DNA from: Shigella phage vB_SboS_Gloob | DNA length: 64,000 nucleotides | Sequence record: OL615011 | Strand: one strand, 5' to 3' | Shown: piece after piece, positions 3,576 through 63,430 of the stretch | Numbering within the stretch: position 1 is the stretch's first letter | Layout: each line of letters starts with the position of its first letter | The notes under the pieces: generated by a model | What the model was told of the DNA's origin: nothing | The model's input: only the letters and a program-made list of their open reading frames with translations | Databases searched by the model: none | Made by a program: the position numbers and the translations under genes

Positions 3576-4120
3576 TAGAACTCCAGGGTCAGAGGGGTTT
3601 CTGTGGACTTGTCGTAATCCGCGCCGCCAGCAGCACGCAGACGATTGCGATCGTTCTTGCGCTTGTGTGCCAGCATGTAGGTTTCGGCATCCAGTCCCAA
3701 ATAACCACAAGCATACGCAAGGAAAGCAGCCAGCACATTGCGCTCTGGATGAGACATAAAATGCGTGAACAGATTTGTCACATGGAGGAAATCTGGCTTT
3801 CTCTGAATAGGTTGGTCAGACACATAACCCGTCATGTCGTACATATCATGCGGCTCCGCTTCTTTTTGTATAACGGCACACAGCATGAAGTGGACGACAT
3901 CGACCAATTCGTAAACCGCATTGACTTGGTGCCATTGCTGGTCTTTACCATAGATCTTCCAGCTGGTCGAAACTTCGTCAAGGAACTCTGCCCACTCGCG
4001 GTAGATAGAGTTTACCACCGCGACTTCGGTCCAATGCTTCTGCCACTCTTCCCCAAAGTAGGCCACGTTGGTGGCCTTTTGGAGTTCGAGCAGGCTTTTG
4101 ATATGCCCTGCTGTGATCAT
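3575..4120 (-). CDS. MazG-like all-alpha NTP pyrophosphatase (candidate dCTPase/dUTPase/dTTPase, T4 gp56 analogue)
   Basis: 181 aa; acidic metal-binding motifs EFLDE and ELVDVVHF typical of MazG/HisE-type NTP-PPases; overlaps both neighbours. Confidence 0.5.
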   Translation of the reverse strand: MITAGHIKSLLELQKATNVAYFGEEWQKHWTEVAVVNSIYREWAEFLDEVSTSWKIYGKDQQWHQVNAVYELVDVVHFMLCAVIQKEAEPHDMYDMTGYVSDQPIQRKPDFLHVTNLFTHFMSHPERNVLAAFLAYACGYLGLDAETYMLAHKRKNDRNRLRAAGGADYDKSTETPLTLEF

Positions 4121-4686
4121 TTACGTTCTCCGTAGAATTTAACGAACGGTGCCCAACCATCAAATGGATTGAGGAATTCGTAGTCCACTTCCATCTTATC
4201 AATGAAAGCCTCTATATCGTCCTCTATGATACCAGCGCGGTCGGCCTTTGAAATGCGGGTGATAGGACATTTCGTACTCAGCGCCCACTCATATTCCTGA
4301 GGGGTGCGCAGATCGCTCACGATATAATGTACATGAGGGTTCTGCTCCACCAGAGGAAGCTGGAAGCGCTTGAAGAATGCCAGGAACAGATCAGGCTGTA
4401 CGTAACGCAAGCCCGTATCGCTGCCGAGATGAAGCCAGATCTGCCGTGGGGTTAAGCCCTTGGGGTTATCAGGGTGGATGTAAGGAACGTCCTTCACGGC
4501 ATCCTCTACCTCCGCTGGCAGCCACGGGTAAATGTAGTTGGCGACCCGGCGCAGTTCATCTGAGAACGAAAGGCGCTGGATATCCATATCACCCTGTAGA
4601 TGGTGATAGCTGATGAGGGACTCCAAACAGAAGTCCTTACCGGAGCGCTTGCGCCCCGTAAAGAATTCAAGGTTCGGGTACATCAT
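4117..4686 (-). CDS. deoxynucleoside monophosphate kinase (T4 gp1 family)
   Basis: 189 aa; P-loop GRKRSGKD characteristic of T4-type dNMP kinases; start/stop overlaps with neighbours. Confidence 0.7.
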   Translation of the reverse strand: MMYPNLEFFTGRKRSGKDFCLESLISYHHLQGDMDIQRLSFSDELRRVANYIYPWLPAEVEDAVKDVPYIHPDNPKGLTPRQIWLHLGSDTGLRYVQPDLFLAFFKRFQLPLVEQNPHVHYIVSDLRTPQEYEWALSTKCPITRISKADRAGIIEDDIEAFIDKMEVDYEFLNPFDGWAPFVKFYGERK

Positions 4687-5729
4687 ACCACACCTTCCAG
4701 GAACTTAGGATCAACAATCTTGCGGTCAACCGGAGAATGGGTGAGCGCAATGTTCAAACCATGATCCTGAATCCGGTTCATGTTGATGAGCTTATCGTTC
4801 AGTTTGCAGTACAGGCAGTATGCCATTTGCATGATCAAGCCACGATCAGCATCATATTCCTTCAGGTGAGCAACCAAAGTTTCCCACGGGCTACCGATAT
4901 CACAATGATGAAGTACACCAGTGAACAGATTGCGGATATGGTTCTGGTTGGTCACGTTCTTGAAGTGGATCATGGAGTTGATGAACCCAGCTTCTACTTT
5001 GGTGTCCTTCGTGATCTTACCCAGCTGCTTCTGGCTGACTTCATTGTTGTAGTAATGAAGATTGTTGGAGAAGAGCTTGTACTGACCGACATCAACATCC
5101 AGCACCTGAGCAATCACTTCTTGAAGAATAGAGAACTCAATGAAGTTGATTGAACTCATACCCCACAGAACATCTTGCGAGCGGTTGATGACCGTCAGGT
5201 TCAGGCGACCTTCAACGATGGCGAACAACAGAGCCAGGTTACACACCATGTCTTTAGTCTTCGCTTCGCCACTCTCGCTGAACTTCGCCAGGCCAGCATC
5301 TGAATCCAGAGCCGGGTCATAGATGGTGAGGTACGCCTGGCGAGTGTTTGGGTTCTTGCGCAGACGGTTGATGACGCTATCCAGCTGGCCATGGGCGTAC
5401 AGACGCGGACCATAAGCGGCTCGCCATGTTACCCCATCATCCGAAAAGTTAGCAGCGCGAGGCAATACGCGTGACAGGAACTTTATGTCGTTGCGGCCTG
5501 ACAACACCCAGAAGGTCTCCCCAATAGCTGCGATAGCCGATGAGTTGCGACCTTCAACGGAGAGCCAGCGGTCACGAATATCGGAAACAGTGATCGTCAC
5601 ACCATCAAGGAAGCGGGTGCCGTCCGTGTTGATCTCCGCGTTACCAGGGTCCGACTCAATCCCGTATTCGCGGATAGCCAAGACAGCCTGTTTCAGCATG
5701 TCATTGTTGTTAATTGCTTTGATTTCCAT
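4683..5729 (-). CDS. thymidylate synthase-family pyrimidine hydroxymethylase (dUMP or dCMP hydroxymethylase candidate)
   Basis: 348 aa; TS-fold motifs ETFWVLSGRN (cf. ELLWFLKG), nucleophile Cys in VCNLALLF, NRSQDVLWG (cf. YQRSxDxxLG); lacks canonical ThyA PCHxxxQF context. Confidence 0.7.
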   Translation of the reverse strand: MEIKAINNNDMLKQAVLAIREYGIESDPGNAEINTDGTRFLDGVTITVSDIRDRWLSVEGRNSSAIAAIGETFWVLSGRNDIKFLSRVLPRAANFSDDGVTWRAAYGPRLYAHGQLDSVINRLRKNPNTRQAYLTIYDPALDSDAGLAKFSESGEAKTKDMVCNLALLFAIVEGRLNLTVINRSQDVLWGMSSINFIEFSILQEVIAQVLDVDVGQYKLFSNNLHYYNNEVSQKQLGKITKDTKVEAGFINSMIHFKNVTNQNHIRNLFTGVLHHCDIGSPWETLVAHLKEYDADRGLIMQMAYCLYCKLNDKLINMNRIQDHGLNIALTHSPVDRKIVDPKFLEGVV

Positions 5730-6403
5730 TAATCGATACTCCCAAAATCACGACAGAGGAATGCCATTACAGCCTGGTCTACTGTTAGACCGTGAGACTT
5801 CATCATACCTGCGGCCACCGTAGGGAACAAGCCTTTATGGCGCTGGCGATGGTCTTGAACACGCTCCCACTTCTCTACCACGAGGCTTTCATTGAAGTCC
5901 GCGCCGCCGTTGCGTGATTTAACACGGGCGATGCACGTTTCAAGAGGGGTGTCCATGAAGAGAACAACCAGTTCGCGCGGTGGGCGCGTCAGGCGGGGGA
6001 TCCAGGAACTCAGTAGAGTTGAAGGGATGATGCCTTCGAAGATCACATCGTATACCTGATATTCAGGTAGATCAGCGATGCTCAGGGCGAAGAGCATTTG
6101 TTCAGTGTCCTTCAGGGAATCAACTCCCTTGGACTTTGACTTGTCATATTTGCCGATACACACCACGTTGAATGACGGGCAGACCGTCAACATAATCTTG
6201 CCGTCATGTGTCACAACATACGCCTGAGGATCCCTCTCCGCCAGCTGAGACGGTACGGTGGATTTGCCGCTACCATTGGAGCCTTTGACGTAATAGAGTT
6301 GCCCTCGTGCTGGGTAGATCCCCTTTACGACGGGTGGTTTAATGAATGTGTGGACGGGGCGCTTGAGCAACCCCTTGAGGGAGTAGGACATAGACTGCTC
6401 CAA
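5729..6403 (-). CDS. P-loop kinase (candidate 5-hydroxymethyl-pyrimidine DNA or nucleotide kinase)
   Basis: 224 aa; Walker A GSNGSGKST; first gene of the overlapping operon. Confidence 0.45.
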   Translation of the reverse strand: MEQSMSYSLKGLLKRPVHTFIKPPVVKGIYPARGQLYYVKGSNGSGKSTVPSQLAERDPQAYVVTHDGKIMLTVCPSFNVVCIGKYDKSKSKGVDSLKDTEQMLFALSIADLPEYQVYDVIFEGIIPSTLLSSWIPRLTRPPRELVVLFMDTPLETCIARVKSRNGGADFNESLVVEKWERVQDHRQRHKGLFPTVAAGMMKSHGLTVDQAVMAFLCRDFGSID

Positions 6404-6465
6404 TAAACAAAAGGAGCTGCTATTATAGCAGCCCCTTCATCTATTGAACAGCTTCTGAACTTAAA

Positions 6466-7331
6466 TTACGCGGCGGCTTTCGCTTCGGCCAGCGCCTGAG
6501 GCAACCATGCGTTGATTGCTTTGACCAGAGACTCAGCATCGGCCTCTTTGATCTTCTGGCGTTTGGTGAAGGACTTGCCGTTCACGTACAGACTGAAGCC
6601 CCAGCCGCCGGAAACGATAGGCGCGACGTCAACGTATGTGTTGGTGCGGGCGTGCAGGTTTTCAGGGTTGGCCAGTTCGGTGACCGGGAACTGGAACCAG
6701 CGCATGTCTGGGTTCACGTAGCTCAGGAACACACCTGGGACAACTCCTGCTTCAATCGCAGCCAAGACCGGACCGTGGGTAGATGCACGGGCGGCGTCAA
6801 CCATTTCTTCACGTTTGGTATGACGGCGTTTACGCTCTTCCAGCGCCGCCTGCGGGGTCAGGGTCTTACCCTTCGCCGCTTCTTTCAGCATAGAAGACGC
6901 CAGGGAACCTACTTTCGCGTCGGACGGCTGATTACCTTCTTCCAGCGCTGCGTTGACTGCGTCTTTAACCGCGTCTACCGGGGCGTCAGACACTGGGGCT
7001 TCACCTGCGTCGGCGTTACCAGCACCAGCGGTTGCGTCGGCAGAGATCGGCGCTTCAGCATCAACGGTTTCAGCGTCTTTCAGGGATACTTCAGCGTGGG
7101 CTTGCTCTTGGGCTTGCGCCAGAGCCTGCTGAGTTTCTTCCTTCTCTTCAGCGCTCAGACCTTCAATCAGTTCGAAGCCGTTGGCGGACTGAAGAACGCC
7201 TTCCACCATACGGCGCAGGGTAACGTTGCCGATCATCAGGCCTGCTTCTTTGATTTCAGCCTGGATAGCCGTAACGTCTTTGCCTTCAATTTCAATTTTG
7301 GTTCCAGAATCTACATGAAGAATATATGACA
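6466..7331 (-). CDS. hypothetical protein with acidic Ala-rich low-complexity linker
   Basis: Likely start MSYILHVDSG; central Ala/Glu/Asp-rich segment; sigma70-like promoter upstream. Confidence 0.5.
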
Positions 7332-7399
7332 TAATAAAAACCCTTTCGTTATTAAGACCGTCTTCGCGGCATATTGCTGTTCTGACCGTGTAGTGAGAA

Positions 7400-7432
7400 C
7401 ATAATATACTGCATTTTTCATAAATGTAAACC
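7400..7432 (-). promoter_or_regulatory. sigma70-like early promoter (TTTACA, 16 nt spacer, TATATT)
   Basis: Read on minus strand upstream of CDS 6466-7331. Confidence 0.35.
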
Positions 7433-7508
7433 ACTTTTTATTGAAAAGAAGTTTACACCTTAGTGTTAAACCGCGCCCAGCCAAGCGGAGCGCGAACTTG
7501 CGTGAATA

Positions 7509-7802
7509 TTAACTTTCAACGTCAATATTGAAAACCATTTCCGGTGGCCAACAAGTTGTTAGCTCGACTTTTGCGAACCGTGGTTGGCAGTACGCATCAA
7601 CTGACTCATCAAACAGACAGTGTTCTACATTTGCGACCATCAGATCATCATCCAGCACTTCAACAGAATGGACAATGATCTTGTGGTCATACGTCAGGCA
7701 ACCGTCTAAATGCATGTTGTCAGCGCGGAGGTGCTGCATGATGAAATACTCTATGATCGACTCAAGGACAGTCGTCAGCTTCAGATAACGTTTCATACAC
7801 AC
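7509..7802 (-). CDS. hypothetical protein
   Basis: 97 aa ORF in operon orientation. Confidence 0.4.
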   Translation of the reverse strand: MCMKRYLKLTTVLESIIEYFIMQHLRADNMHLDGCLTYDHKIIVHSVEVLDDDLMVANVEHCLFDESVDAYCQPRFAKVELTTCWPPEMVFNIDVES

Positions 7803-7816
7803 CTCACACAGTGGGG

Positions 7817-8566
7817 TTATTTGGACAGGTAGAAGTTTGGAACTTCAGGGAAATGCTCTGGTAGACATTCCCCCAGAATATCCTGCTTCACCTTCCCTTC
7901 GATATCTTCGCGGATCCGACGAATTACGTCTTCCTGTTGTTCTATCGCCATCACTTCTTCCATGGCGGAGTACAAGTTGTCTAGAATGACACCTACGTAG
8001 TTGTGGATGGCACGACAGGAGTTCTGGTCATACTCCATATCTGGATGAATCGCCAGGTCGACCTGATCACGCCCTACCAGCAGATGTCCAGACACCAGAT
8101 TTATCGGGTATTGGAATACTTCACCAGATTTGACAGCAACTCCGTCGGCTTGCTTCAGCAGGAATTCGGTTTCAGAGAAGCGTTCAAGTAGTTCCGGTGG
8201 GAATACCATATCGAGATTCTGACGCTTGCGACTAAAGAAGTACAGACAATGCGCCAGTTTCAGGCATGCATCGGTGGCCATCTTCATATGTGCTTTAGCG
8301 TGTTCATAACCAGCGATCACATCACGGACATAATCGTACAGGTCGGCATGACCAAAACGGATGTCCTCTTCGAAGCGGATTGCCGCCTCGCTGTCTGATT
8401 TCAAACCCAGCACGTCAAAGATGTTGTGTTCACGGACGGATCTGCCTTTGCGATCAAAGCCTAGAACACAACCGACTTCGAATCCACTCTTTTCAAAATT
8501 TGGGAGTTTCATATCAAGGCGAGCTGGGGTGAATTCCAACCCGAACATACGATAAATTTGTGACAT
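7817..8566 (-). CDS. hypothetical protein
   Basis: 249 aa ORF, no recognised motif. Confidence 0.45.
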   Translation of the reverse strand: MSQIYRMFGLEFTPARLDMKLPNFEKSGFEVGCVLGFDRKGRSVREHNIFDVLGLKSDSEAAIRFEEDIRFGHADLYDYVRDVIAGYEHAKAHMKMATDACLKLAHCLYFFSRKRQNLDMVFPPELLERFSETEFLLKQADGVAVKSGEVFQYPINLVSGHLLVGRDQVDLAIHPDMEYDQNSCRAIHNYVGVILDNLYSAMEEVMAIEQQEDVIRRIREDIEGKVKQDILGECLPEHFPEVPNFYLSK

Positions 8567-8629
8567 GTTATAGCCTCATTGTTGAAGGATTACCCGTTCA
8601 CGAATTATCCCTCGGAACGGGTTATAGAA

Positions 8630-9334
8630 CTATTTCTTCTTATGCATCCGACGCGCATCTTTCCAAACAGACATCTGACTCTGTTTCTGGAAGCGAGCGG
8701 TGCGCATGAAGAGGACGATCTCCCAGTACTGTGGCTCGATCTCATAGAGCTGAGTGCGGAAGCGGTCGGCGCGGTACAGCTTCACACAGTGATTGTACAG
8801 CGGGTGGTTGGCGAACCGCTTCAGAGCATCCCAAGTGAGCTTCAGACGCGTCTTTGAGCGGTACGCCCGTTCGTTGCGCAACTTGATGAGATCTTCGAAC
8901 ACTAACAGCCTGAGCTTCGGTGGGAGGTAATGCATGTTCAGTCCCCAGAGGTATGTCACGCCCTTCTCTCCAAAGGTGATTCCATCACCCTTGGCAAAGT
9001 TGAAGAAGAACACCAGAGGATACATATCCCAGTACGGCAGTTCGTCCTTCGTCAGAGCATCGTATTTGAAATAGAACATGCGCCCGACCATATACCGCAC
9101 ACCCTGTACGGGACGCTTGTGATCAGCGAACGCCTGTTTCATATGGTTGGGAGTCAGGTTGGCGTCCTTAGACACACGCTCCATGAACCACACATGCGAA
9201 CGGCGGATGTTGCGCTTCGCCTCTGGACCGAAGTGTTGGCGGTACTTTCGGATGTATCGCTTGACGAGTTCAGGGGCGTCCATCTCGGCCGGAAACAGCA
9301 ACGGATCTTCTTCGCCAGCTGCATTCTTTGCCAT
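8630..9334 (-). CDS. conserved hypothetical protein
   Basis: 234 aa; basic termini; divergent from gp54-like gene. Confidence 0.5.
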   Translation of the reverse strand: MAKNAAGEEDPLLFPAEMDAPELVKRYIRKYRQHFGPEAKRNIRRSHVWFMERVSKDANLTPNHMKQAFADHKRPVQGVRYMVGRMFYFKYDALTKDELPYWDMYPLVFFFNFAKGDGITFGEKGVTYLWGLNMHYLPPKLRLLVFEDLIKLRNERAYRSKTRLKLTWDALKRFANHPLYNHCVKLYRADRFRTQLYEIEPQYWEIVLFMRTARFQKQSQMSVWKDARRMHKKK

Positions 9335-9344
9335 TTGTCAACTC

Positions 9345-9352
9345 CTATAAAT
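9345..9352 (+). promoter_or_regulatory. T4-type late promoter TATAAATA
   Basis: Exact TATAAATA 36 nt upstream of GTG start at 9388, with GGAG RBS between. Confidence 0.6.
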
Positions 9353-9387
9353 AACAACAGTTATCTTATTTAAGTGGAGTCCTCACC

Positions 9388-10332
9388 GTGGAAGACTATC
9401 GCAATTTTATCACACAGATGTTACAGCGGGGCTTGTCACGCAAGAACCGCTTCAGAGTGACCATCCCTCTGCCACCAGGGATCTTTGACTCCAATGCCAC
9501 TCTGGCTAATGACGGAAAGGCGTACAGCACCAATTCATCTTTCGGTGACTTGTTTAAGCAGTCAGCCCGTATTGTAAACGCTTTCTTTGGAGGGACAAAC
9601 CAGACTTCCCGTTCCCTTCAGATGATGTGTATGGTTGCCTCATTGCCAGGGGTTGGTATTGACACCACCCCAATGACGAACAACGGCAACCACATCAAGA
9701 TGCCGAACAACAAGTCCAACGTCGACCTCGACCTGTCATTCCTGTTGGCCAATGACTATTACGAGAAATCCGTAATGGACAAGTGGAAGAGTCTGATCTT
9801 TGATCCATACACTACCAAGATGGGCTATTACGAAGACTTCGTCACCGACATCTGCATTGAACAGCTTGATACTGAAGACCAGGTGGTTCACCGCGTCTAC
9901 ATCGTCGAGGCTCATCCGATCAACTTCAGTTCCATCGAGCTGGACAAAGGTGCCACCGATCAGTTCAACCAATACAACATCTCTTTCTCTTACAACAAAG
10001 TGCTCTCGGAGACAGAATATGAAACACGCAGCCTTTCCAGCGATTTTCTTCCTCTCGGTATTGCTGACGCTCTTACCAGTGGTGACTGGGAAACTGCGGC
10101 CTCAAAAGCCGGACAGCTTTATCGGAAAGTCAAAGAAGGAAACTTCACAGGAGAGGCTCTCCTGGCTTACAAACAGCTTGACCAACTTGTAAACAACCTG
10201 GCTGGGATCAGCCTACAGGACTTCGAGCGCATCTCGGTGGGTATCTCTCGTGACATCATGGGCAACGATAACCTGACGGCGGCGGAGAAGACAAACCTGT
10301 TGGGGATATTGCAAGACGTGATGGGCAAATAA
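9388..10332 (+). CDS. baseplate tail-tube initiator/cap protein (gp54/gp48-like)
   Basis: 314 aa, GTG start with GGAG RBS; N-terminal NRFRVTIP resembles tail tube/initiator family; late promoter upstream. Confidence 0.55.
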   Translation: MEDYRNFITQMLQRGLSRKNRFRVTIPLPPGIFDSNATLANDGKAYSTNSSFGDLFKQSARIVNAFFGGTNQTSRSLQMMCMVASLPGVGIDTTPMTNNGNHIKMPNNKSNVDLDLSFLLANDYYEKSVMDKWKSLIFDPYTTKMGYYEDFVTDICIEQLDTEDQVVHRVYIVEAHPINFSSIELDKGATDQFNQYNISFSYNKVLSETEYETRSLSSDFLPLGIADALTSGDWETAASKAGQLYRKVKEGNFTGEALLAYKQLDQLVNNLAGISLQDFERISVGISRDIMGNDNLTAAEKTNLLGILQDVMGK

Positions 10333-10358
10333 AAAGCCCTCCGAAGAGGGCTTGTTCA

Positions 10359-11405
10359 TTAGTTAGACTTGAGGTACTGCTCGAAGTCGTCGATGGAAGC
10401 CGTGTTCTTGGCGTCCGGTGTAGACTGAGACTGAATTTGAGTCTGAGTCTGTGACGGCGCGGCCTGCTGTTGTTTCAGGCTGTCTTGAGCAGTTGGCTGC
10501 TGGTTGACGGGCTGCTGGTGAGCAGTCTGGGTATTAGGGGCATGTGCCATCGTGGCCGCACCACCTTCAACCAGAGGCTGGTCATCAGGGATTGCCAGAA
10601 CTTTACGCAGACGCTTTTCCAGAGAGTCGTAGTCTTTGAAGTTAGCCGGATTGAAGAATTCAAACAGGCTGTGTTCACGAGACCACACGTCTTCCATGTA
10701 GGCTTCGTCGTCGCTCAGTGGAGCCGGAGCAGCCCAACTGACGTTGGAGAAGTTAGCCACCAGACCTTCCCAGTTCCCAAACTTCTTCTGCTCACCAAAG
10801 AGCTTCAGGTTCAGGTTGGCACCTTCCCACAGATCGAACGGATCGAATTTAGGGTCGGTTGGGAACTTAGGATTCTGCGCCTGATCCAGGATTTTCTTGA
10901 TGGCGTTACCAAACTCCAGCAGGAAGACCTTGCCGTTGTTTTCCGGTACGTTGACATCGTTGATCACCAGGATGTTGGCGTAGTATTTGGTGTCAGGCAG
11001 ACGTTTCTTCAGGATGTCCTTCAGCTTTTCGTCGTTCGTTTCTTTCTGCTGCGCCCACAGCGGACGGTCATGGTCGCGCACCGGATCGTCGTTGCCGAAC
11101 GTCTGAGGTGAGTTCTCAATGTACCAACCACCAGGTCCCTGGAACTGATGCTTCATGATCATGGCGCAAGGGGTCAGGATCTGATCTTTATCGATCGTTC
11201 CTTCTTCCTGTGCCTTGATGTCTACCAGTGGGACTGGCAGGAAGCGGATGGTGTTCTCGGAGATGCCATCTTTGTTCCAAGTCCATTTCCAGATGCGAGG
11301 ATCCTTCTGGAAGCCGGACTTCTGGCCTTGCTGTGCAAGACGCGCCTGCATTGCGTCAGCTTGCTGGCCACGGGACGCTTTCAGACGATCGAATAAATTA
11401 CCCAT
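10359..11405 (-). CDS. 32: single-stranded DNA-binding protein gp32
   Basis: 348 aa; N-terminal region with IRFLP motif as in T4 gp32; acidic Gln/Pro-rich C-terminal tail. Confidence 0.85.
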   Translation of the reverse strand: MGNLFDRLKASRGQQADAMQARLAQQGQKSGFQKDPRIWKWTWNKDGISENTIRFLPVPLVDIKAQEEGTIDKDQILTPCAMIMKHQFQGPGGWYIENSPQTFGNDDPVRDHDRPLWAQQKETNDEKLKDILKKRLPDTKYYANILVINDVNVPENNGKVFLLEFGNAIKKILDQAQNPKFPTDPKFDPFDLWEGANLNLKLFGEQKKFGNWEGLVANFSNVSWAAPAPLSDDEAYMEDVWSREHSLFEFFNPANFKDYDSLEKRLRKVLAIPDDQPLVEGGAATMAHAPNTQTAHQQPVNQQPTAQDSLKQQQAAPSQTQTQIQSQSTPDAKNTASIDDFEQYLKSN

Positions 11406-11469
11406 TTCTTAATTCCTCTGTTTCCGCCCCTCAGGGCTATTCTGTTACATGTATTTTCAGTTTTGTTAC

Positions 11470-11487
11470 AAGCGGGGTAATTATACC
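11470..11487 (-). promoter_or_regulatory. hairpin in gp32 5' leader (possible translational operator or upstream terminator)
   Basis: Palindrome CGGGGTA-ATTA-TACCCCG about 65 nt upstream of gp32 start. Confidence 0.3.
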
Positions 11488-11503
11488 CCGATACTACATT
11501 GAT

Positions 11504-11743
11504 TTAACCTTTAAGCACTTGATTTGCTGGGTCAATTTCAATAATGTCGAACACGTCCGAAAACGTCTTCTTGCCTTCCTCGTGGGTATGGTACTCAACG
11601 ACATATGAGCGACCATCAGGGGTAACGTAACGAATACGATCTGTCTGGTCGGCATGCTCGTTCAGGCTACCCACTCGCCAGCGCATTGCGCCAGGAAGAA
11701 ACTCGGCAGCTTTCATTGCGCTGTAAATTGATTCTTTGCTCAT
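11504..11743 (-). CDS. hypothetical protein
   Basis: 79 aa ORF. Confidence 0.4.
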   Translation of the reverse strand: MSKESIYSAMKAAEFLPGAMRWRVGSLNEHADQTDRIRYVTPDGRSYVVEYHTHEEGKKTFSDVFDIIEIDPANQVLKG

Positions 11744-11750
11744 AATAAAC

Positions 11751-11996
11751 CTACACTAATTTCTTGGACTTCAGCGTGTCTTTGATCAGGCGCGCATCGG
11801 AGCACTCAGCTGTCAGTCGCGACAACAACGGTGCTGTAATCATCTTTCTGACTTTGGTTTCGTCTATGTCGTTCTCTTCACAGACAGCAGCCAGAGTCTC
11901 AAGGATACTATCCTTGGTTTGGGCGGCGCGCAGTAGGACAATTTCAGAAAATGATTCTGGTGTCATCACAAGCGCTGGTAGTTTTTCGTCAGACAT
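11751..11996 (-). CDS. hypothetical protein
   Basis: 81 aa ORF. Confidence 0.4.
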   Translation of the reverse strand: MSDEKLPALVMTPESFSEIVLLRAAQTKDSILETLAAVCEENDIDETKVRKMITAPLLSRLTAECSDARLIKDTLKSKKLV

Positions 11997-12234
11997 CGAT
12001 CGTGTTCCCCTTGCCCGAACCCTTCTTTATCGTGCGCAAGACGTCCTTGAAGCCGTCTGGAGCCGATTGTGGTCCCTTCACCCCAGAGACAATCTTGGGA
12101 GCACCCACCACCATTTTAATCTCCCCTCCGCACTCAGTGCAGGGGTTGGATTCAGGCTCATGGCGATCTGCAATAGATTTACGCAGTGACATCGCGCTAC
12201 CACAGCCCTTGCATTGATAATCATACAGCGGCAT
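11989..12234 (-). CDS. zinc-ribbon protein
   Basis: 81 aa; CxxC (CKGCG) and CxxC (CTECGG) pairs. Confidence 0.5.
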   Translation of the reverse strand: MPLYDYQCKGCGSAMSLRKSIADRHEPESNPCTECGGEIKMVVGAPKIVSGVKGPQSAPDGFKDVLRTIKKGSGKGNTIDV

Positions 12235-12532
12235 GGAACACCCCCACAGTTGTCAGTACAAAACGAGCCATAATGATAACCAGCAACGCCACTGTAGAAA
12301 ACACGATACGCTTGATCATTTTGTCACGGATCTGAATGAACTGATATGAGAGGATAGCCTCGGCCTGTTGATCGGCACGAACGTTCGTGTCACGATGTGG
12401 TGACAGTGTGTAGAAGTTGATCTGGTACACATACGCATGAACCAGAGTGAAGAACGACTTCACCCAGACCAAGACAACCACTAACAACAAAGCGAACGTC
12501 AGGAAGTTCGCCAACAACCAGTAATCGACCAT
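12221..12532 (-). CDS. small membrane protein
   Basis: 103 aa; two long hydrophobic segments. Confidence 0.45.
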   Translation of the reverse strand: MVDYWLLANFLTFALLLVVVLVWVKSFFTLVHAYVYQINFYTLSPHRDTNVRADQQAEAILSYQFIQIRDKMIKRIVFSTVALLVIIMARFVLTTVGVFHAAV

Positions 12533-39438: not shown

Positions 39439-39966
39439 TCAGATACCGATAAATTCATCAAAAGATCCAACAACCTTCTTCACTGAGATCTTGTCATTCT
39501 CAATCAGGAAGTTGCTGTCGTTTTTGGCTGCTGTGGCCCAGTCATCGGCAAGTTCGTTACCTTCGTGCCCCGCATGACCCTTAACCCATTTTAGTTCAAC
39601 TTCACAAATTGAACAAACGAGATCATAGATTCTGAACAGATCTTTGATGAGTTCAACGTTCTTGTCTGGGAAGCCCTGATACTCCCACTTCGCTCGCCAT
39701 TCGGTGACGCTCTTGATGGTGTATTGGCTGTCAGACCAAATTGTTGCCTTTGGTATTCTGCGCTCACCCTTTCCTGAGAATGCCCACAGCAGCTTCAATG
39801 CGTTGGTCACACCCAACAACTCGGCGATGTTGTTGGTGGACGGGGGAGGCAGGTGACCGAAGAACACCTTCCATTGCATACCCGATATTGGCCTGATGAC
39901 AAATGCCCATCCTGCGGCCTGGTTGGTCTTCGGGTTAGAACCCCCGTCAGAATAAATTTCTATCAT
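39439..39966 (-). CDS. rnhA: RNase HI
   Basis: Start MIEIYSDGG; motifs SDGG, TNNIAEL, WSDSQY, WVKGHAGHEGNELAD. Confidence 0.8.
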   Translation of the reverse strand: MIEIYSDGGSNPKTNQAAGWAFVIRPISGMQWKVFFGHLPPPSTNNIAELLGVTNALKLLWAFSGKGERRIPKATIWSDSQYTIKSVTEWRAKWEYQGFPDKNVELIKDLFRIYDLVCSICEVELKWVKGHAGHEGNELADDWATAAKNDSNFLIENDKISVKKVVGSFDEFIGI

Positions 39967-39968
39967 GA

Positions 39969-39976
39969 TATAAATA
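39969..39976 (+). promoter_or_regulatory. T4-type late promoter TATAAATA
   Basis: Exact TATAAATA 27 nt upstream of ATG at 40003, with AGAGGA RBS. Confidence 0.6.
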
Positions 39977-40002: not shown

Positions 40003-40779
40003 AATGAAACTATGGCACCCCGCGCATATCGTTTCAGTCTCACCGCCCCGCAGATTGAGCAATTGCTCCTTTCTATCAATGATGCTATCAAGTCAGAAGA
40101 TATCATCTATGATTATGCTGCAGGTGGGACTGTTGGGCAAGTCGCAGCAGCGTCTGCCGTCAAGAACATGTGGTTGAAGCTCAACGAGATGGTAACAGGC
40201 CAAGGCCTCAAAGATGCCATCAACGCTGCAGAAGACAGCAACGTGTTCACCGACTATTATAAGTCTTTACTGGATCGCGAAGGCTGGAAATTTATTGGGT
40301 CTCCGGCAGATGAACTTGAGCGAGGCGACATCGACACCGCGAACTTCACGGGTGGTGAGGTCATTCTACTTCAGAAGAACGCTTCAGGCAACCCCGAATT
40401 CCAATACTGGAAGCGTACCCCGGTTGCTGGGGGTGATCCTACCTTTGCATGGGCTTCGGTCTATGAAGGGAACTCCAATGACTCTTCCATTGAGATCCCT
40501 GTGGTTGGCACCAGCGTACTCAAGGACATCCCCAAGGCGCTCTTCCATATGATCGAGTTCAGAGTGCATGTCTACGATGAGACACTGGGTCATTGGCAGG
40601 ACACCGACGGAAAAGTAGGGTATCGTGGCGAGGATCTGTTCTACAGCGTCTACAACCATGTTCAGACCAAACCTCTCGCCACCATTGACTTCAGTCAAGA
40701 CACAGATAGCATGACAGTCTCTGTTACTTCCCTGGAGCCGAATGTCAAATGCCATCTGTCGTTTATCGCTGGTTACTAA
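40003..40779 (+). CDS. late-expressed putative virion protein
   Basis: Start MAPRAYRF; late promoter upstream; function unknown. Confidence 0.5.
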   Translation, partial: NETMAPRAYRFSLTAPQIEQLLLSINDAIKSEDIIYDYAAGGTVGQVAAASAVKNMWLKLNEMVTGQGLKDAINAAEDSNVFTDYYKSLLDREGWKFIGSPADELERGDIDTANFTGGEVILLQKNASGNPEFQYWKRTPVAGGDPTFAWASVYEGNSNDSSIEIPVVGTSVLKDIPKALFHMIEFRVHVYDETLGHWQDTDGKVGYRGEDLFYSVYNHVQTKPLATIDFSQDTDSMTVSVTSLEPNVKCHLSFIAGY

Positions 40780-42494
40780 ACCTCGAACACGGCATCAGTA
40801 AACCAAGCGGGGAAGAACTCTGGGTTGCGCATCATCAGTGATTCAAAAGAAGAATCAAGGATGTATGTCGCAGCCCAGTCATTCACGCCCCTGACCGAAC
40901 GCCCGCACATCTGAACGATACGCAGTACCGCCATCCTGAAGTACGCCGATGGGTCTACACTGTTGACGTGAGCCACCAGAGGATCACCAAGGTAATCGTA
41001 TGGAACCTTGATCAAGATCTGAAATCGGCTGTAATCGCCTTTGAAGTCATACCCCTCTTCCATAGCCGGACTGGCGATGACACAAGGCGTCTTGGTCCGG
41101 AACGCGTGTTCCATGATGTCCATCAGAGCCTTACGAGTACGAGGAACGTGAATCATATTCCGGTACTTACTGAACTTCTGTAGAGCCAGGGCGCGGTCAT
41201 AACTTACTGTGTGAATGATGCCAGACTGCCCAGGGTGGAATGCGATGATTTCATCCACGTATTCGGCCAGCTTCTTCATCTCATAGTCACCCATGTTCGC
41301 CGTCATCTTCATGATGGGCATGTAGTTGACTTTCCGGTTCTCAATCGGGATAGGGTTTCCGATCTGAATCTTGTGGTACTCGCCCTCACGGATACCCAGT
41401 GACCGAGCGTACGAGTCAATCCCACAAATGGTCGCCGACATGTGAACGTGGTAGTCACCCTTGCGGAACAGGCCGAACTGGGATACATCAGATGCGATGA
41501 CAGGCTTGAACTGAATCATGCCCTTGTCCTTCTCCTGTACGATGAAGGTGCTGGCGTTGGTCTGCCCCATGATCCCACAGTAGTCGCTGAGGTTGTGAAG
41601 GGTGTCAATGATGTCCGACAACTTCATCACCTGGGCTTCAGTCAGGCGCTCGTCCTCTACCAGTTCCTCAAGGGTTTCCAGCAGGGCTTCAACCTTGTCA
41701 TGCAGGTCGTCAAATATCGAATGCATCTCACCAGACAGGGAATACAGCTTGCCCAATTCATAGTTCTCTGTGCGGATGATGATATCCTTGATGAGTTCCA
41801 CGATAGGCACTCCCTCGGGGATCGTAAGCAACCCTTCCACAGCCTTTATGCTGTATTCCATGATCGTGTGCTCTAGGAGCGTAGAGGGCATTTTATGGCA
41901 CTCGTCAAGGATCAGCATATCGGCGCGGTTTTCGGGCTTCATGCAGATCGTCGTGCACATCTCCACCATCATGGCGGCGTTGGTGCAGCGCAGGGAGGAG
42001 ACGTCTGTCCACTGACGACGCGCCTGAACATATGGACAACGATTCTTGTTACAGTGGCCATCTCGGCATGCCATACGGCACTGGATAGCGTTGTAATACA
42101 GGTCAGGGCTGATATGACAACGATAGTTCTTCTTGCCCTTCAGGATGTCTATCGCCACTGCCCTTTCAGCCGCATACTGATCTTGTAACCCTTTGGTCGG
42201 TGTTGTGATAGACGTGCGGAACTGACCATATGGGTTGCGCTCAAGAACCAGATGGCGAAGCACGTTATGGATGGTAGTGCCGATGAGGGATTTACCCACG
42301 CCCGTCGGCGCCTCGATGATCACGTGTTTGAATTTCTTATTCACAAGGGCATCAACGGCTTCAACGATGCACTCCATCTGGCCGGGGTTGGCGGTGTCGT
42401 ATGGGAAGGACTCAGTGGCAAGAGACTTGATGCGGTCTATGCTAACTGGTCCGACGCCATCAAGCGCCTTGGTATATTGGTTGAATGCTGTCAC
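40776..42494 (-). CDS. DinG/XPD-like SF2 helicase with Fe-S cluster
   Basis: 572 aa; Walker A APTGVGKS, Walker B DECH, cysteine cluster CHISPDLYYNAIQCRMACRDGHCNKNRCPY between them. Confidence 0.7.
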   Translation of the reverse strand: MTAFNQYTKALDGVGPVSIDRIKSLATESFPYDTANPGQMECIVEAVDALVNKKFKHVIIEAPTGVGKSLIGTTIHNVLRHLVLERNPYGQFRTSITTPTKGLQDQYAAERAVAIDILKGKKNYRCHISPDLYYNAIQCRMACRDGHCNKNRCPYVQARRQWTDVSSLRCTNAAMMVEMCTTICMKPENRADMLILDECHKMPSTLLEHTIMEYSIKAVEGLLTIPEGVPIVELIKDIIIRTENYELGKLYSLSGEMHSIFDDLHDKVEALLETLEELVEDERLTEAQVMKLSDIIDTLHNLSDYCGIMGQTNASTFIVQEKDKGMIQFKPVIASDVSQFGLFRKGDYHVHMSATICGIDSYARSLGIREGEYHKIQIGNPIPIENRKVNYMPIMKMTANMGDYEMKKLAEYVDEIIAFHPGQSGIIHTVSYDRALALQKFSKYRNMIHVPRTRKALMDIMEHAFRTKTPCVIASPAMEEGYDFKGDYSRFQILIKVPYDYLGDPLVAHVNSVDPSAYFRMAVLRIVQMCGRSVRGVNDWAATYILDSSFESLMMRNPEFFPAWFTDAVFEV

Positions 42495-42537
42495 TTTCTT
42501 CCTCCTATGGGATTCACCTTTAGTTTAACCGATTCCC

Positions 42538-42572
42538 AGGAACGAAAAAGCCGGAGTACAATGCTCCGGCTT
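42538..42572 (-). terminator. rho-independent terminator after HU gene
   Basis: AAGCCGGAG-CATTGTA-CTCCGGCTT followed by TTTTCGTTCC on minus strand. Confidence 0.6.
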
Positions 42573-42623
42573 TCTCTTTTGTCACGCCCCCGAGTTGCAG
42601 AGGCCGGACCGAACCAGGTTGAA

Positions 42624-42902
42624 TTACTTGCCGTTGGCAGCGTTCTTCAGACCTTCGCCCACTTTAAATTTCACAACGTTTTTCGCTTCGATCTGAATGG
42701 TCTGGCCGTTCAGAGGGTTACGACCTTCACGAGCTTCCTGGTGCTTCACTTCGAACGCGCCGAAGCCGACCAGCTGTACAGATGCGCCTGCAGCAACTGC
42801 AGTTTTAACGCCGTCGATAAAGGATGCCACTACTTTCTCCGCTTCGCCTTTGGTGATGTTCTGGGTCGAAGCAATGTGGGCAACAAATTCAGTACGATTC
42901 AT
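42624..42902 (-). CDS. HU/IHF-family histone-like DNA-binding protein
   Basis: 92 aa; HU signature LVGFGAFEV...EGRNPLNGQTIQIEA. Confidence 0.8.
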   Translation of the reverse strand: MNRTEFVAHIASTQNITKGEAEKVVASFIDGVKTAVAAGASVQLVGFGAFEVKHQEAREGRNPLNGQTIQIEAKNVVKFKVGEGLKNAANGK

Positions 42903-42992: not shown

Positions 42993-43277
42993 TTATTGGG
43001 TGTTTCCTTTGGAGATGAATGATTCCATGTCTTCCCGAGAAATAATCGTTTCTACACGATCTTCATCGATCAACATTTCGTTCAGAAGGTCATAGCCCAG
43101 GACTTTCACACCACGCACACCCCAAGACTTTTCCCTCAGCTCTGACTCAATACTGAGAACTCTCTGAACCGTCAGGCCACCAGAAGAGAATGGGACCGGA
43201 AAGAAAGCAGAACACACTTGGGCACACCCATTCACGCTGTATCGAACCAGCAGGACATCACACCATACGCCAGCCAT
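42993..43277 (-). CDS. hypothetical protein
   Basis: 94 aa ORF. Confidence 0.4.
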   Translation of the reverse strand: MAGVWCDVLLVRYSVNGCAQVCSAFFPVPFSSGGLTVQRVLSIESELREKSWGVRGVKVLGYDLLNEMLIDEDRVETIISREDMESFISKGNTQ

Positions 43278-43278
43278 G

Positions 43279-43962
43279 TTACACCTCCACCGCGTGAGAC
43301 TTCAGGAGTTCATCAATCGCTTTCTGTCCCATATAAGAGAATGGGGTGCGCTGGTAGAACGCCCACAGAACCAACTGAACGACAGCGCGGGAACGGGTTT
43401 CGGCCGTCATCACCAGGTCGCTGAAATGAGGAGACTGTGCCGTCCACTGAATCACTTCGCCCAGGTCTTGATTACAGGTCACGGAGATGCGGAACTTGTT
43501 GCACAGATTGTCGACTTCTTTGTACGCATCGGTAGACACCCGAAGTTGGTCTGCATGCGCCCATGGTGTCGTGACGATTCTTTCACCCATCACTTTATCA
43601 GAGATAAACCAATCAATGGATTCAACAAACTTGCCGAAATGGTCGATGCGATAAATGCAGTCTCCCCCTTCCATAGAACGCATGGCATGATAGCGAGCGT
43701 CGATTTCGTTGTTGTGCATCGCGTTGAAGTCGATGAACACGCGACGCGCCAACACAACATCTTCCGGCTCCAGAGGGATGTATTCCCCTTCGTTGCTAGA
43801 CCTCCGGATGTTCGGATAATGTAGAATGCCGCTTAAATGCCCAGTGCAATATACATAACGAGGTCCAACACCCCCGACACGAGCATGAGCGACATAGGAT
43901 GGTTCTGTGAATCGCAAGTGGCCTTGATCGGCACCGACGATAATAGAATAAAGTTTTTCCAT
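43279..43962 (-). CDS. hypothetical protein
   Basis: Likely start MEKLYSIIVGADQGH. Confidence 0.4.
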   Translation of the reverse strand: MEKLYSIIVGADQGHLRFTEPSYVAHARVGGVGPRYVYCTGHLSGILHYPNIRRSSNEGEYIPLEPEDVVLARRVFIDFNAMHNNEIDARYHAMRSMEGGDCIYRIDHFGKFVESIDWFISDKVMGERIVTTPWAHADQLRVSTDAYKEVDNLCNKFRISVTCNQDLGEVIQWTAQSPHFSDLVMTAETRSRAVVQLVLWAFYQRTPFSYMGQKAIDELLKSHAVEV

Positions 43963-44019
43963 GATATAGTCTCTCAAATGAAAAGGGCGACCTTATGATA
44001 AGTCGCCCGAGGTTATTGA

Positions 44020-44928
44020 TTATTGGAAATCACCAACATACATGTTCAGCTTGTCGTCCCAGTTCAGAACAACACGGATCGTTGCGGTATCTTCTGGGAA
44101 GGTCAGTTTGTCACACATGGCGCGATTAACATAAGTCCCACTCTGGTTCACGTTGTAGTCCTTGCCTTGCATGATACCAAAACGCTTGAAGTCGCGTGTC
44201 ACCATCATGTTCAGGGTCGCCCATGGGAGTGATTCACGCAATGCTTTACACAGGATAATCTTTCCATTCGGCCTGAATGATACAAACAACTCATTAGCAA
44301 CCCGGCGGCGGGTGGGTGCCTCGAGTTCACGCAGGGAGATAAATTCAGAGGGATCGTCCAATGCACCCAGGGTGATCATGTCTTCGCGAACTTTATTGAC
44401 AATTTCAGTTACTGCTGACACGACTTCAACTGCCGGATTCGTCTTAAATGGCTCAACAGTCGTGGACATCTTGGATACAGACATCCCGCTGCCGTTGCGC
44501 TTCTCCGCATATTGCTCGACGGACTTGTCACTCACTGGAGGCAGTTTGGTGGCAGGAGTTATGACCGGGCTTGCATCTGGTTTCGCCTTTGGGGTACTCC
44601 GAGCCGCACGCAGCTTTTCCTGGGCTTCCAGAATGCGCTCTTGACGAGAAAGTGGAGCCTTTGGGGTGATCTTCGTACTGAAGTCAGAAACGCCGACCCA
44701 GTCACCCTGGTCATTACGCTTGGCGACCAGAGTCAGTTTGTGGATGATGCCCTGAAGTTTGCTCTCACGCAAGTTGTCGGCATACCAGAACTTCGCACCC
44801 ATCTCGAACTTCTCGGCGAAGATCACGCGAGCGTCTTCGTGTACCAACATAACTTTGGCTGTGTTGGGGGCAAAAGCCTTATTCTTTTCGATAATCGCCG
44901 CAGCGATTGATTTGGTCAGGAGCATCAC
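44020..44928 (-). CDS. hypothetical protein
   Basis: 302 aa ORF. Confidence 0.45.
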   Translation of the reverse strand: MMLLTKSIAAAIIEKNKAFAPNTAKVMLVHEDARVIFAEKFEMGAKFWYADNLRESKLQGIIHKLTLVAKRNDQGDWVGVSDFSTKITPKAPLSRQERILEAQEKLRAARSTPKAKPDASPVITPATKLPPVSDKSVEQYAEKRNGSGMSVSKMSTTVEPFKTNPAVEVVSAVTEIVNKVREDMITLGALDDPSEFISLRELEAPTRRRVANELFVSFRPNGKIILCKALRESLPWATLNMMVTRDFKRFGIMQGKDYNVNQSGTYVNRAMCDKLTFPEDTATIRVVLNWDDKLNMYVGDFQ

Positions 44929-61553: not shown

Positions 61554-61931
61554 ATGAAACAGTTCGTAGGATTATATGCGGTCGGATGCAGTAAGCCAGA
61601 CGCCATCCTCACCGCAGGGCAATTTGTCACAGGCACCCCAGTTTATCTGGCGCAGCTGGCGTCAGACAAGAACTTACCATCGGAGCCGCGATTTGTCCCT
61701 CTGGGTTTGATGGCAGGCCTGAAAGTTGGTCTGTATGTCGGTGTGGTGACGTTTGAAAACGGCGTCGAAGCGAAGGTTCTGCCATTTAAATTGGGCAGCG
61801 AACAAATGCTGAAGGACACTATCAGTGAACACCTGAACGCACAATGTCTGGTTTCTCTGGACAAATTGTTCGGCACAGTATCTGATGAAGGCGAGGCCAC
61901 CCCCGCCTATGTGAATCAAGATCAGTCGTGA
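61554..61931 (+). CDS. hypothetical protein
   Basis: 125 aa plus-strand ORF between gp45 and uvsW. Confidence 0.45.
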   Translation: MKQFVGLYAVGCSKPDAILTAGQFVTGTPVYLAQLASDKNLPSEPRFVPLGLMAGLKVGLYVGVVTFENGVEAKVLPFKLGSEQMLKDTISEHLNAQCLVSLDKLFGTVSDEGEATPAYVNQDQS

Positions 61932-63430
61932 TTACCCAGCGCCACCTTCATGAACTCCACAGGGTGGCGCTCTGTCAGGTAGAACTTGTAACGCTCATGA
62001 GAGTGCCTGATAGCGTGGTTCGTGCTGGCGTTGTACGACACATCATCCACTAAGTCCCATATCCACGCGACGTCCTTGGAGGAGTGCTGACGCATCAGAC
62101 GACCCAATGTCTGTATGACGCGGATATATGACTTGCTCGGGTGCGCCAGTACAAGGTGGTGTAGCTTCTTGATTGACACACCCTGTTGCATTGTCCCGTA
62201 TGAAGCCAACAACGTGATATCCTCTCCATCCTCCATCGCTTTCTGTATGCGGCGGCGGTCTTCGATCTTCACTTCCCCGTTGATGACAAACACGTTGGGC
62301 TTGACTGCGCTCAGCATATCGTACACAACCATCATGTGGGCGTCAATACGCTCGAACATGATGGCCACGTTCCCTTTCAGATTCAGTGCCATCTTGGCGA
62401 TCAGTTCGTTGCGGGACTGGTGTGTAATAAGGTATTCTATTTCCTTGGCATAATCCCCGTCCAGACCAACAGCATCCGCCGGAGTGTGCTTCAGCTGAAT
62501 CATCTTCACTTTGATGTCAGTGGCGTACCCGAGATTGATAAGGTCGCGAGCTGTGATGATCTTATGGTACGCCCCGAAGTGAGCCACCACCTGAAGCCCG
62601 GCAACTTTGGTGTTCGACAGCGTACCTGTAACCCCCAGGCGCTGGTCGGCGTAGATGCAGTTGTTGAGGATGTAGGACAGTTTCTCAGACTTGGAGGTAT
62701 GCACTTCATCCACCACGATGTCACCGAACTGGTGGAACCATTCTTTCGGCTGGTCTTGAATGCCCTGCCATGTACTGATGACGATTGGTTTGCTGATTTC
62801 CTTTGTCGCGCCCTCAAAGATCAACTGAGTGTTGACAACGGGCTTCCAATCACTGCCGTGTGCGTACTCTTCAAAGTTGTCGTACAGCTGAGTGACCAGG
62901 TGAATCGACGGCACCACGATAAGCGTCTTCAGAGGACTTTCGAGAGCTTCTCTGCGCTGCCTGTAGTACCGCGCCATGACATACAGAATAAAGGACTTAC
63001 CAGCACTTGTAGCCAGTTCACAGACGCATCTGGTTTGACGCATAGCCTTGGCGATGGTGTCGTACTGATAGTCACGGGTCTCAGCATCGATGTATTCGTG
63101 ATTTTCGGTGCGGATCTTTGGATGGAGACTGTCGATGAAGTCATGGATTTCTTGATCTGGGATGTCCTGAATGTACTTCAGAGCCGGATCCAGTTCAATG
63201 GTGTATTTGTTGTTCTTGCAGAACTTGAACACCTCAAACAGTAGGCCGATATCAATCAGGCCGGATGACTTGGTGAATAAGCGAACAACCCCGTCCCATT
63301 TAGAGAAGGGGTTGGGAACGAAGTTCGGGTCTTCGAATTTGAAGTAGTCATTCAGCTCTTCCCTGATAGAAAGATCTGCGATGCAACGCATGCGGACTTC
63401 GTTAACCTTAACAATCTGAATGTCTGCCAT
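61922..63430 (-). CDS. uvsW: UvsW-like SF2 DNA helicase
   Basis: Start MADIQIV; Walker A ATSAGKS, DEVH box, TGT motif. Confidence 0.75.
   Translation of the reverse strand: MADIQIVKVNEVRMRCIADLSIREELNDYFKFEDPNFVPNPFSKWDGVVRLFTKSSGLIDIGLLFEVFKFCKNNKYTIELDPALKYIQDIPDQEIHDFIDSLHPKIRTENHEYIDAETRDYQYDTIAKAMRQTRCVCELATSAGKSFILYVMARYYRQRREALESPLKTLIVVPSIHLVTQLYDNFEEYAHGSDWKPVVNTQLIFEGATKEISKPIVISTWQGIQDQPKEWFHQFGDIVVDEVHTSKSEKLSYILNNCIYADQRLGVTGTLSNTKVAGLQVVAHFGAYHKIITARDLINLGYATDIKVKMIQLKHTPADAVGLDGDYAKEIEYLITHQSRNELIAKMALNLKGNVAIMFERIDAHMMVVYDMLSAVKPNVFVINGEVKIEDRRRIQKAMEDGEDITLLASYGTMQQGVSIKKLHHLVLAHPSKSYIRVIQTLGRLMRQHSSKDVAWIWDLVDDVSYNASTNHAIRHSHERYKFYLTERHPVEFMKVALGNHD

Follow-up and report, generated by a model that had tools for sequence, protein, structure and literature searches.

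Related helicases and the gene under study

Escherichia coli DinG is established as a helicase of 5'-3' polarity that unwinds R-loops and D-loops, and phage T4 carries Dda as an accessory 5'-3' helicase. One account of E. coli DinG describes it as aiding replication across transcribed regions (PMC2770101), CasDinG (Csf4) of type IV-A CRISPR systems unwinds RNA/DNA hybrids (PMC10450177), and the iron-sulfur (Fe-S) domain of Finegoldia magna DinG showed Fe-S density and two DNA-binding Arg residues, with a C289A/C294A mutant losing stability and having its Fe-S cluster disrupted (PMC13650095). Here we describe a gene at 40776..42494, on the minus strand of a 64,000-nucleotide (nt) stretch of Shigella phage vB_SboS_Gloob (sequence record OL615011; the whole stretch is called the window below), which an earlier reading of the letters alone (hereafter the sequence-only reading) had taken to encode a DinG/XPD-like helicase. 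The coding sequence (572 amino acids, aa; GTG start, TAG stop) comes from the list of open reading frames and is backed by matches to PHROG 2488 and Pfam, a structure model and fold matches. The gene is real and intact, and is predicted to code for a superfamily 2 (SF2) DNA-unwinding enzyme of the XPD/DinG Fe-S family; our best overall explanation, which we hold to be rather probable, is an XPD/DinG Fe-S helicase acting as an accessory 5'-3' helicase.

The helicase region shared 98.5% nt identity with Shigella phages MK-13 and Ag3 and 93-97% with other Agtrevirus genomes. Judged by sequence, the source phage is an Agtrevirus of the Ackermannviridae (ViI/Ag3-type) and not a member of the Tevenvirinae, and the T4 setting assumed by the sequence-only reading holds only for the T4-type replication core, which the two groups have in common. 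As at least 80% of a 3-kb query was covered by 238 phage records, the helicase looks like a core gene of this phage family. Given homologues in 497 phage records and thousands of metagenomic clusters, a chance origin of the feature is far from credible. Record labels read 'DNA helicase', 'ATP-dependent helicase' and occasionally 'ATP-dependent DNA helicase DinG'; the gene is already labelled as a helicase in hundreds of public genomes, and is an uncharacterised member of a well-known enzyme family.

Helicase motifs, predicted fold and family assignment

The SF2 motifs Q, I, Ia, II (DExH), III, V and VI are all intact, including GxGK68 and SAT355, and all lie on the minus strand. From the N-terminus, they comprise the Q-motif region FPYDTANPGQ (aa 30-39; 42378..42407) with invariant F30, G38 and Q39, the Walker A motif or motif I APTGVGKS (aa 62-69; 42288..42311), the motif Ia region ITTPTKGLQDQY (aa 96-107; 42174..42209) with invariant L103, Q104 and Q106, the DExH box of motif II LILDECHK (aa 194-201; 41892..41915), and motif III HMSATICG (aa 351-358; 41421..41444), which served as a clade-specific search pattern. 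The C-terminal part of motor domain 2 (aa 465-565; 40800..41102) was delimited by Pfam Helicase_C_2 and holds motif V (aa 476-490) and motif VI VQMCGRSVRG (aa 527-536; 40887-40916). The catalytic residues K68, D197, E198, H200, Q528, R532 and R535 were each found in 140 of 140 aligned sequences (139 representatives from a 50%-clustered library).

An AlphaFold2 model built on a 57-sequence alignment reached a mean predicted local distance difference test (pLDDT) score of 90.1 and a predicted template modelling (pTM) score of 0.88. Its secondary structure suggests an Arch-like insertion of about 120 residues between motifs II and III (approximately aa 212-335, with approximate boundaries; 41490..41861, minus strand), made up of helices at 226-241, 255-279 and 286-311 and a beta hairpin at 316-331, all modelled at a pLDDT of about 85-95. 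With an Arch domain so placed, the predicted protein has the four-domain fold of DinG and XPD.

Sequence and structure searches converge on the same family. In Pfam, Helicase_C_2 (PF13307) matched aa 465-565 with 46.7 bits (gathering cut-off, 25.3 bits), with further matches to ResIII and DEAD, while the PHROG 2488 'DNA helicase' profile matched over nearly its whole length (862.5 bits, 3.3e-259; aa 19-572 aligned to positions 3-579 of the 579-position profile). A profile made from the 57 sequences and run against PDB sequences found E. coli DinG (3.9e-20), Finegoldia DinG (1.5e-17) and Thermoplasma acidophilum XPD (6.6e-14), followed by Rad3/XPD (about 1e-11), FANCJ (9e-11), CHL1 and Sulfolobus XPD. 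In a Foldseek search of the PDB, ranks 1-43 were exclusively DinG, XPD, CasDinG, Staphylococcus aureus DinG and Hna, RecQ appearing first at rank 44, and the DinG/XPD fold alignments were nearly full length (480-528 residues). We are all but certain that the protein belongs to the XPD/DinG (Rad3) Fe-S helicase family. The 572-aa SF2 helicase with APTGVGKS and DECH and the XPD/DinG signature proposed by the sequence-only reading thus stand, with alignment and fold leading only to this Fe-S family.

Membership of the superfamily does not extend to orthology with its named members, since every curated cut-off was missed: the NCBIfam equivalogs for E. coli DinG (NF008729, 67.3 bits against 598) and YoaA (NF053712, 57.8 against 680), the Rad3/XPD subfamily model (TIGR00604, 24.7 against 246.95) and the CasDinG/Csf4 model (TIGR03117, 11.6 against 400). 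By sequence and by fold the phage protein is about equally distant from DinG and XPD. E. coli DinG (6fwr/6fws), likewise an SF2 enzyme with Fe-S and Arch insertions, ranks first among solved structures both in the profile search and in Foldseek (1.3e-27, TMq 0.65-0.67), but identity is 16-18%, its length is 716 aa against 572 aa in the phage, and the phage protein has the smaller Arch and the tighter Fe-S module. Unlike archaeal and eukaryotic XPD (Rad3; 2vl7, 3crv, 4a15, 5fmf), the phage gene is found without a TFIIH or nucleotide excision repair partner context and its product without a DEAD_2 match; unlike Finegoldia EndoDinG (9kqh; PMC13650095), which has an N-terminal PD-(D/E)XK nuclease, it has no extra domain; and unlike CasDinG/Csf4 (8e2w, 7xf0, 8s35), whose FeS domain is vestigial and cysteine-free, it has its cysteines. 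True family members are the other viral proteins of the clade, namely those of PHROG 2488, PhiW-14 gp70, the halovirus HF2/HSTV 'Rad3-related helicase' and the Rhizobium and Vibrio phage 'ATP-dependent helicase', which share 27-46% identity over 95-99% of the length and the same four cysteines.

The cysteine module

Between motifs Ia and II lies a module, CHISPDLYYNAIQCRMACRDGHCNKNRCPY (aa 126-155; 42030..42119, minus strand), delimited by conservation and by alignment with DinG, in which four cysteines are spaced C126-x12-C139-x8-C148-x4-C153 within a 28-residue span. The predicted ligand codons are at 42117-42119 (C126), 42078-42080 (C139), 42051-42053 (C148) and 42036-42038 (C153). All four were invariant in 119 full-length homologues of 35-99% identity and in the 57-sequence alignment, and were kept in Delftia phage PhiW-14, in Vibrio, Aeromonas and Rhizobium phages and in halovirus HSTV-3 (27% identity), as well as in the chromosomal copies of Trueperaceae. 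In the larger set with 139 representatives, C126 and C153 were present in 140/140 and C139 and C148 in 130-131/140 by a fast alignment, and 133 of the 136 parsable proteins had at least four Cys between Walker A and the DExH box. The four-cysteine cluster of the sequence-only reading was accordingly placed correctly between the two motifs, but the segment quoted for it contains five cysteines, of which C143 (42066-42068, minus strand) is not conserved, being Cys in only 42 of the 119 homologues.

Profile alignment puts C148 and C153 on C199 and C205 of E. coli DinG, and C126 and C139 on C282 and C294 of Finegoldia DinG; among these aligned DinG cysteines, C199/C205 (E. coli) and C294 (Finegoldia) are published ligands. 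After the module comes CPY..ARRQW, in which R159 and W162 are invariant, and in the profile alignment the pattern 'CP[YF]..RR' at C153 corresponds to 'CPFFvaRR' of E. coli DinG. On this analysis, the four cysteines very probably hold a real Fe-S cluster.

The homologue in Yersinia phage YerA41 (481 aa, about 26% identity; locus coordinates 5989-7434) differs from the other viral members in that the whole cysteine segment is deleted. Judged from its sequence, it appears to be a natural Fe-S-less variant of the clade, comparable to the vestigial FeS domain of CasDinG.

A candidate accessory helicase beside T4-type replication genes

The window also encodes a gp41-like helicase (225-1649), UvsW (61925-63430), UvsX, gp32 and primase, and Ag3 additionally has a gp59-type loader, UvsY, a RuvC-like resolvase and gp43. 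When T4 Dda was used as a tblastn query on the window and the complete Ag3 genome, the best match had E = 0.9 and covered only the P-loop of PhoH, and no Dda is annotated in Ag3. Two candidates were set aside on these grounds: the replicative helicase, as gp41-like, gp59-like and primase genes are already present, and a hidden Dda homologue in the genome. Dda homologues did occur in 2,186 other phage records, with none of the 60 sampled coming from Ackermannviridae. The contrast with T4 Dda drawn by the sequence-only reading is thus apt, and an accessory 5'-3' helicase role is the best supported one because gp41, gp59, primase and UvsW are present and Dda is absent. As to an accessory role in replication or recombination taken by itself, we regard the chances as evenly divided. 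By analogy, the protein may be a functional counterpart of Dda, standing beside gp41 and UvsW in a T4-type system, although Dda belongs to superfamily 1B and the phage protein to the Fe-S enzymes of SF2, with no sequence similarity between them.

Mechanistically, homology to E. coli and Finegoldia DinG and to archaeal and human XPD suggests that the four cysteines would hold a [4Fe-4S] cluster that shapes a wedge or pore together with the Arch domain. The enzyme would load on single-stranded DNA, translocate 5'->3' at the expense of ATP, and unwind DNA duplexes, with RNA:DNA hybrids and D-loops as further probable substrates. From the gene inventory, it would be made before late transcription and may remove R-loops, D-loops or protein obstacles, or contribute to repair. 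A more far-reaching version, which we offer as speculation and think doubtful, is that the clade is a non-orthologous replacement of Dda in the T4-type replisomes of its carriers, a redox-active accessory Fe-S helicase that would act with RNase HI to clear the path of forks of R-loops and transcription complexes and would tie replication to host Fe-S assembly and to iron and oxidative state.

The neighbourhood of the gene was part of the original case for such a role, and here the evidence is thinner. The genes named by the sequence-only reading were all identified: RNase HI (type 1 RNase H; 39439..39966, minus strand; PF00075 2.9e-25; phrog_531) and, by PHROG, a late sigma factor of the gp55 type (phrog_234), SbcD/gp47 (phrog_100) and SbcC/gp46 (phrog_77). 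RNase HI is not directly beside the helicase, however, as a 255-aa late gene on the plus strand (phrog_3833, function unassigned; 40012..40779) separates the two. Two related phages retain the order helicase...RNase H-sigma-gp47-gp46, namely Vibrio phage K474 and, more loosely, Aeromonas phage TSW001. Across six distant carriers no universal partner gene was found, and the helicase gene always stood among DNA-metabolism genes. The neighbourhood therefore indicates 'DNA metabolism' and little more, with RNase HI adjacency being weak evidence for replication-fork or R-loop processing.

Several other observations weigh against an accessory Fe-S helicase. The XPD/DinG N-terminal signature, Pfam DEAD_2 (PF06733), gave no match at E<=1 in the phage protein, although it was found in relatives (24.9 bits against a cut-off of 21 in a Trueperaceae copy, and a match in one further homologue, P0066). 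Only two of the four cysteines are aligned with cysteines of E. coli DinG, and the module is far more compact than that of the E. coli enzyme. Polarity, substrate and cluster binding of the phage protein are assigned entirely by homology, and our literature search returned no biochemical, genetic, expression or essentiality data for any viral XPD/DinG helicase. The absence of Dda applies to Ag3 and the window, the wider anticorrelation having been assessed on a sample. The gene order is not kept in PhiW-14, HSTV-3 or YerA41, and the link to RNase HI is not operonic, given the convergent late gene between them. Finally, neighbours in other viruses point to repair: Rhizobium phage RHph_I1_9 (locus coordinates 8187-10237) has a DenV endonuclease V and a FEN-type RNase H within 3 kb of the helicase, and HSTV-3 (locus coordinates 11740-12204) has an ERCC4 (XPF-like) nuclease 4 kb from it.

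Alternative functions

The DenV and ERCC4 neighbours in other viruses are compatible with a dedicated repair helicase of the XPD/FANCJ kind, and so is the fold. Such an enzyme, rather than helping replication forks, would verify bulky lesions or crosslinks in the phage genome, or unwind the DNA around them, and pass them on to a nuclease. No nuclease partner was conserved across the lineages examined, however, and the region examined around the gene (35.2-46.5 kb) contained no excision-repair gene, so that we consider a dedicated repair function unlikely. Repair and replication-restart roles overlap and are not mutually exclusive in the XPD/DinG family.

A second alternative concerns the module rather than the role, namely that it binds zinc or is purely structural, leaving an XPD/DinG-fold helicase that works without a functional Fe-S cluster. 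Its 28-residue span and the restriction of shared E. coli DinG ligands to C148/C153 would suit this idea, cluster-less relatives do exist in YerA41 and in the vestigial FeS domain of CasDinG (PMC10450177; PMC13650095), and the halovirus homologue has been classed among CxxC-motif, zinc-finger-like proteins (PMC7230728). Yet the module is located between motifs Ia and II as in Fe-S family members, it ends in C-P-Y with conserved Arg residues after it, as in E. coli DinG and in Finegoldia DinG, where Fe-S density and DNA-binding Arg were seen, C126/C139 coincide with C282/C294 of the latter enzyme, and the four positions are near-universal over thousands of divergent sequences. A zinc-binding or structural module is thus improbable in our judgement, and an Fe-S cluster is the preferred reading of the cysteines.

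Next, the helicase might be linked to the hypermodified thymidine of these phages (5-NeOmdU), by opening newly made DNA containing 5-hydroxymethyldeoxyuridine (5-hmdU) for the enzymes that modify it after replication, or by unwinding bulky modified DNA on which other helicases perform badly. A homologue of the clade is carried by YerA41, the DNA of which is presumably hypermodified. The DNA of Ackermannviridae contains 5-NeOmdU (PMC11721090; PMC5889632), and in PhiW-14 the aG/PT-PPlase1 gene gp72 lies two genes downstream of helicase gp70 on the same strand (PMC5889632, Table 3; locus coordinates 5986-8967). Against this, the tentative gp72 counterpart in Ag3, a YuA-like gene beside a thymidylate synthase homologue that was chosen by a shared 'similar to phage YuA' note, is about 34 kb from the helicase, Lee et al. 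2018 mention no helicase (PMC5889632), and the clade occurs also in haloviruses, in Rhizobium phages and, in a housekeeping context, on Trueperaceae chromosomes. We hold a connection with hypermodification to be very improbable.

A type IV CRISPR (CasDinG-like) or other defence or counter-defence helicase carried by the phage can be dismissed as hardly conceivable, for although PADLOC model PDLC01439 ('typeIV_DinG; CAS-IV-A; associated') matched end to end with 170.6 bits (1.4e-50), as the best named model after PHROG 2488, and the fold matches include CasDinG and Hna, PADLOC matched 0 of 9 neighbours, the whole 64-kb window has no repeat array, canonical Csf4 models reached only 11.6-26 bits, the phage protein keeps the cysteines that CasDinG has lost, and PDLC01439 scored higher on the homologue of Methanobrevibacter acididurans (279 bits) and on the Trueperaceae copy in a housekeeping context (238 bits). 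Because of those higher scores, PDLC01439 is best seen as a generic model of the compact clade. It gave 124-279 bits on every clade member and, used alone, may mislabel ordinary XPD/DinG-like helicases as CRISPR-associated.

A large compact clade in viruses and cells

Among 1.84 billion sequences, the 57-sequence profile matched 15,667 cluster representatives at E<=1e-3, of which 4,339 reached E<=1e-30 (50%-identity clusters), and the best 150 representatives were mostly 515-640 aa long. Phage carriers included Ackermannviridae, Vibrio, Aeromonas, Delftia, Rhizobium, Sphingomonas and Xanthomonas phages and haloarchaeal tailed viruses. More broadly, the clade extends over large myoviruses that have T4-type replication genes but lie outside Straboviridae (e.g., Ackermannviridae and Pootjesviridae) and over haloarchaeal and methanogen viruses. 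Predicted viral structures of the same fold carried the labels 'ATP-dependent helicase' or 'DinG Rad3-related' only.

A scan of species-representative genomes recovered 250 relatives, the best of which were mostly full-length copies of 28-31% identity on megabase chromosomes of Trueperaceae/Deinococcales, together with relatives of 25-27% identity in Methanobacteriales, including one complete Methanobrevibacter genome. In several Trueperaceae a neighbourhood recurred that consists of lipA, lipB, a SpoU methylase, the helicase, an AsnC regulator, ymdB and phosphoenolpyruvate carboxylase (locus coordinates 3305-12470). The clade is thus large, compact and distinct, and is, unexpectedly, also cellular and not purely viral.

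These findings do not overturn current understanding, public annotation having already identified the gene as a helicase; their interest lies in the very large compact clade, the candidate substitute for Dda, the cluster-less variants and the cellular relatives. If our explanation is true, an Fe-S enzyme would be needed for the DNA metabolism of the ViI/Ag3-type phages, a group in wide use against Salmonella, E. coli O157, Klebsiella and Dickeya, and the protein would show how T4-type replisomes without Dda fill the accessory-helicase role. The literature searched held no characterised virus-encoded Fe-S helicase, and this one would be the first characterised from a phage. As a small protein of a single architecture with thousands of natural variants, including the cluster-less one of YerA41, it could also be a handy minimal model for the function of the Fe-S domain.

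Start codon, flanking genes and transcription

The GTG start of the 572-aa form is preceded by a Shine-Dalgarno sequence AGGAGG (42501..42506, minus strand) with a 6-nt spacer. This start is favoured over that of a 533-aa form because of the AGGAGG and because the invariant F30, G38 and Q39 lie upstream of M40. The 572-aa GTG start is the one chosen in most other records, whereas the MK-13 orthologue (RefSeq NC_049455.1; locus coordinates 9777-11378) is annotated as 533 aa from the internal ATG (M40), which cuts off these three Q-motif residues, invariant across homologues. The RefSeq annotation in MK-13 thereby loses the conserved Q motif and should be corrected.

The helicase gene and the phrog_3833 gene, which is annotated as a 'putative structural protein' in some relatives, converge tail to tail; no terminator lies between them, and their stop codons overlap by 4 nt (40776-40779). 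A T4-type late promoter motif, TATAAATA (39969-39976, plus strand), is located 36 nt before the ATG of the phrog_3833 gene and occurs three times in the 64 kb, against 0.54 expected. As there is no terminator between the convergent stops, late transcription should run antisense into the helicase gene. The late-promoter motif is absent from the region upstream of the helicase, which is therefore probably a pre-late gene; a sigma-70 promoter scan of the same region gave no convincing site on the coding strand. Scans for tRNA and Rfam families over the 64-kb window were both empty.

Between the helicase start and the next gene upstream, about 50 nt from the start, is a GC-rich hairpin, AAAGCCGGAG-(loop)-CTCCGGCTTT, flanked on either side by T-runs (42547..42573, either strand). 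It looks like a bidirectional intrinsic terminator and is probably the terminator of the upstream HU-family gene; in phages Marshall and Maynard, a 'terminator' is annotated in the matched region. Further upstream on the minus strand are three conserved genes with unassigned functions, DUF7425/phrog_5397 (42993-43277), phrog_5426 (43279-43977) and phrog_3828 (44020-44928), which matched only uncharacterised phage families and nothing in the defence library.

The HU-family gene itself (42624..42902, minus strand; PF00216 5.9e-30) is called 'transcription factor 1' in some records. The HU-like TF1 of phage SPO1 prefers hydroxymethyluracil DNA, and the placement of an HU-family gene directly upstream of the helicase in a phage family with 5-hmdU-derived DNA is a pairing that may be of interest.

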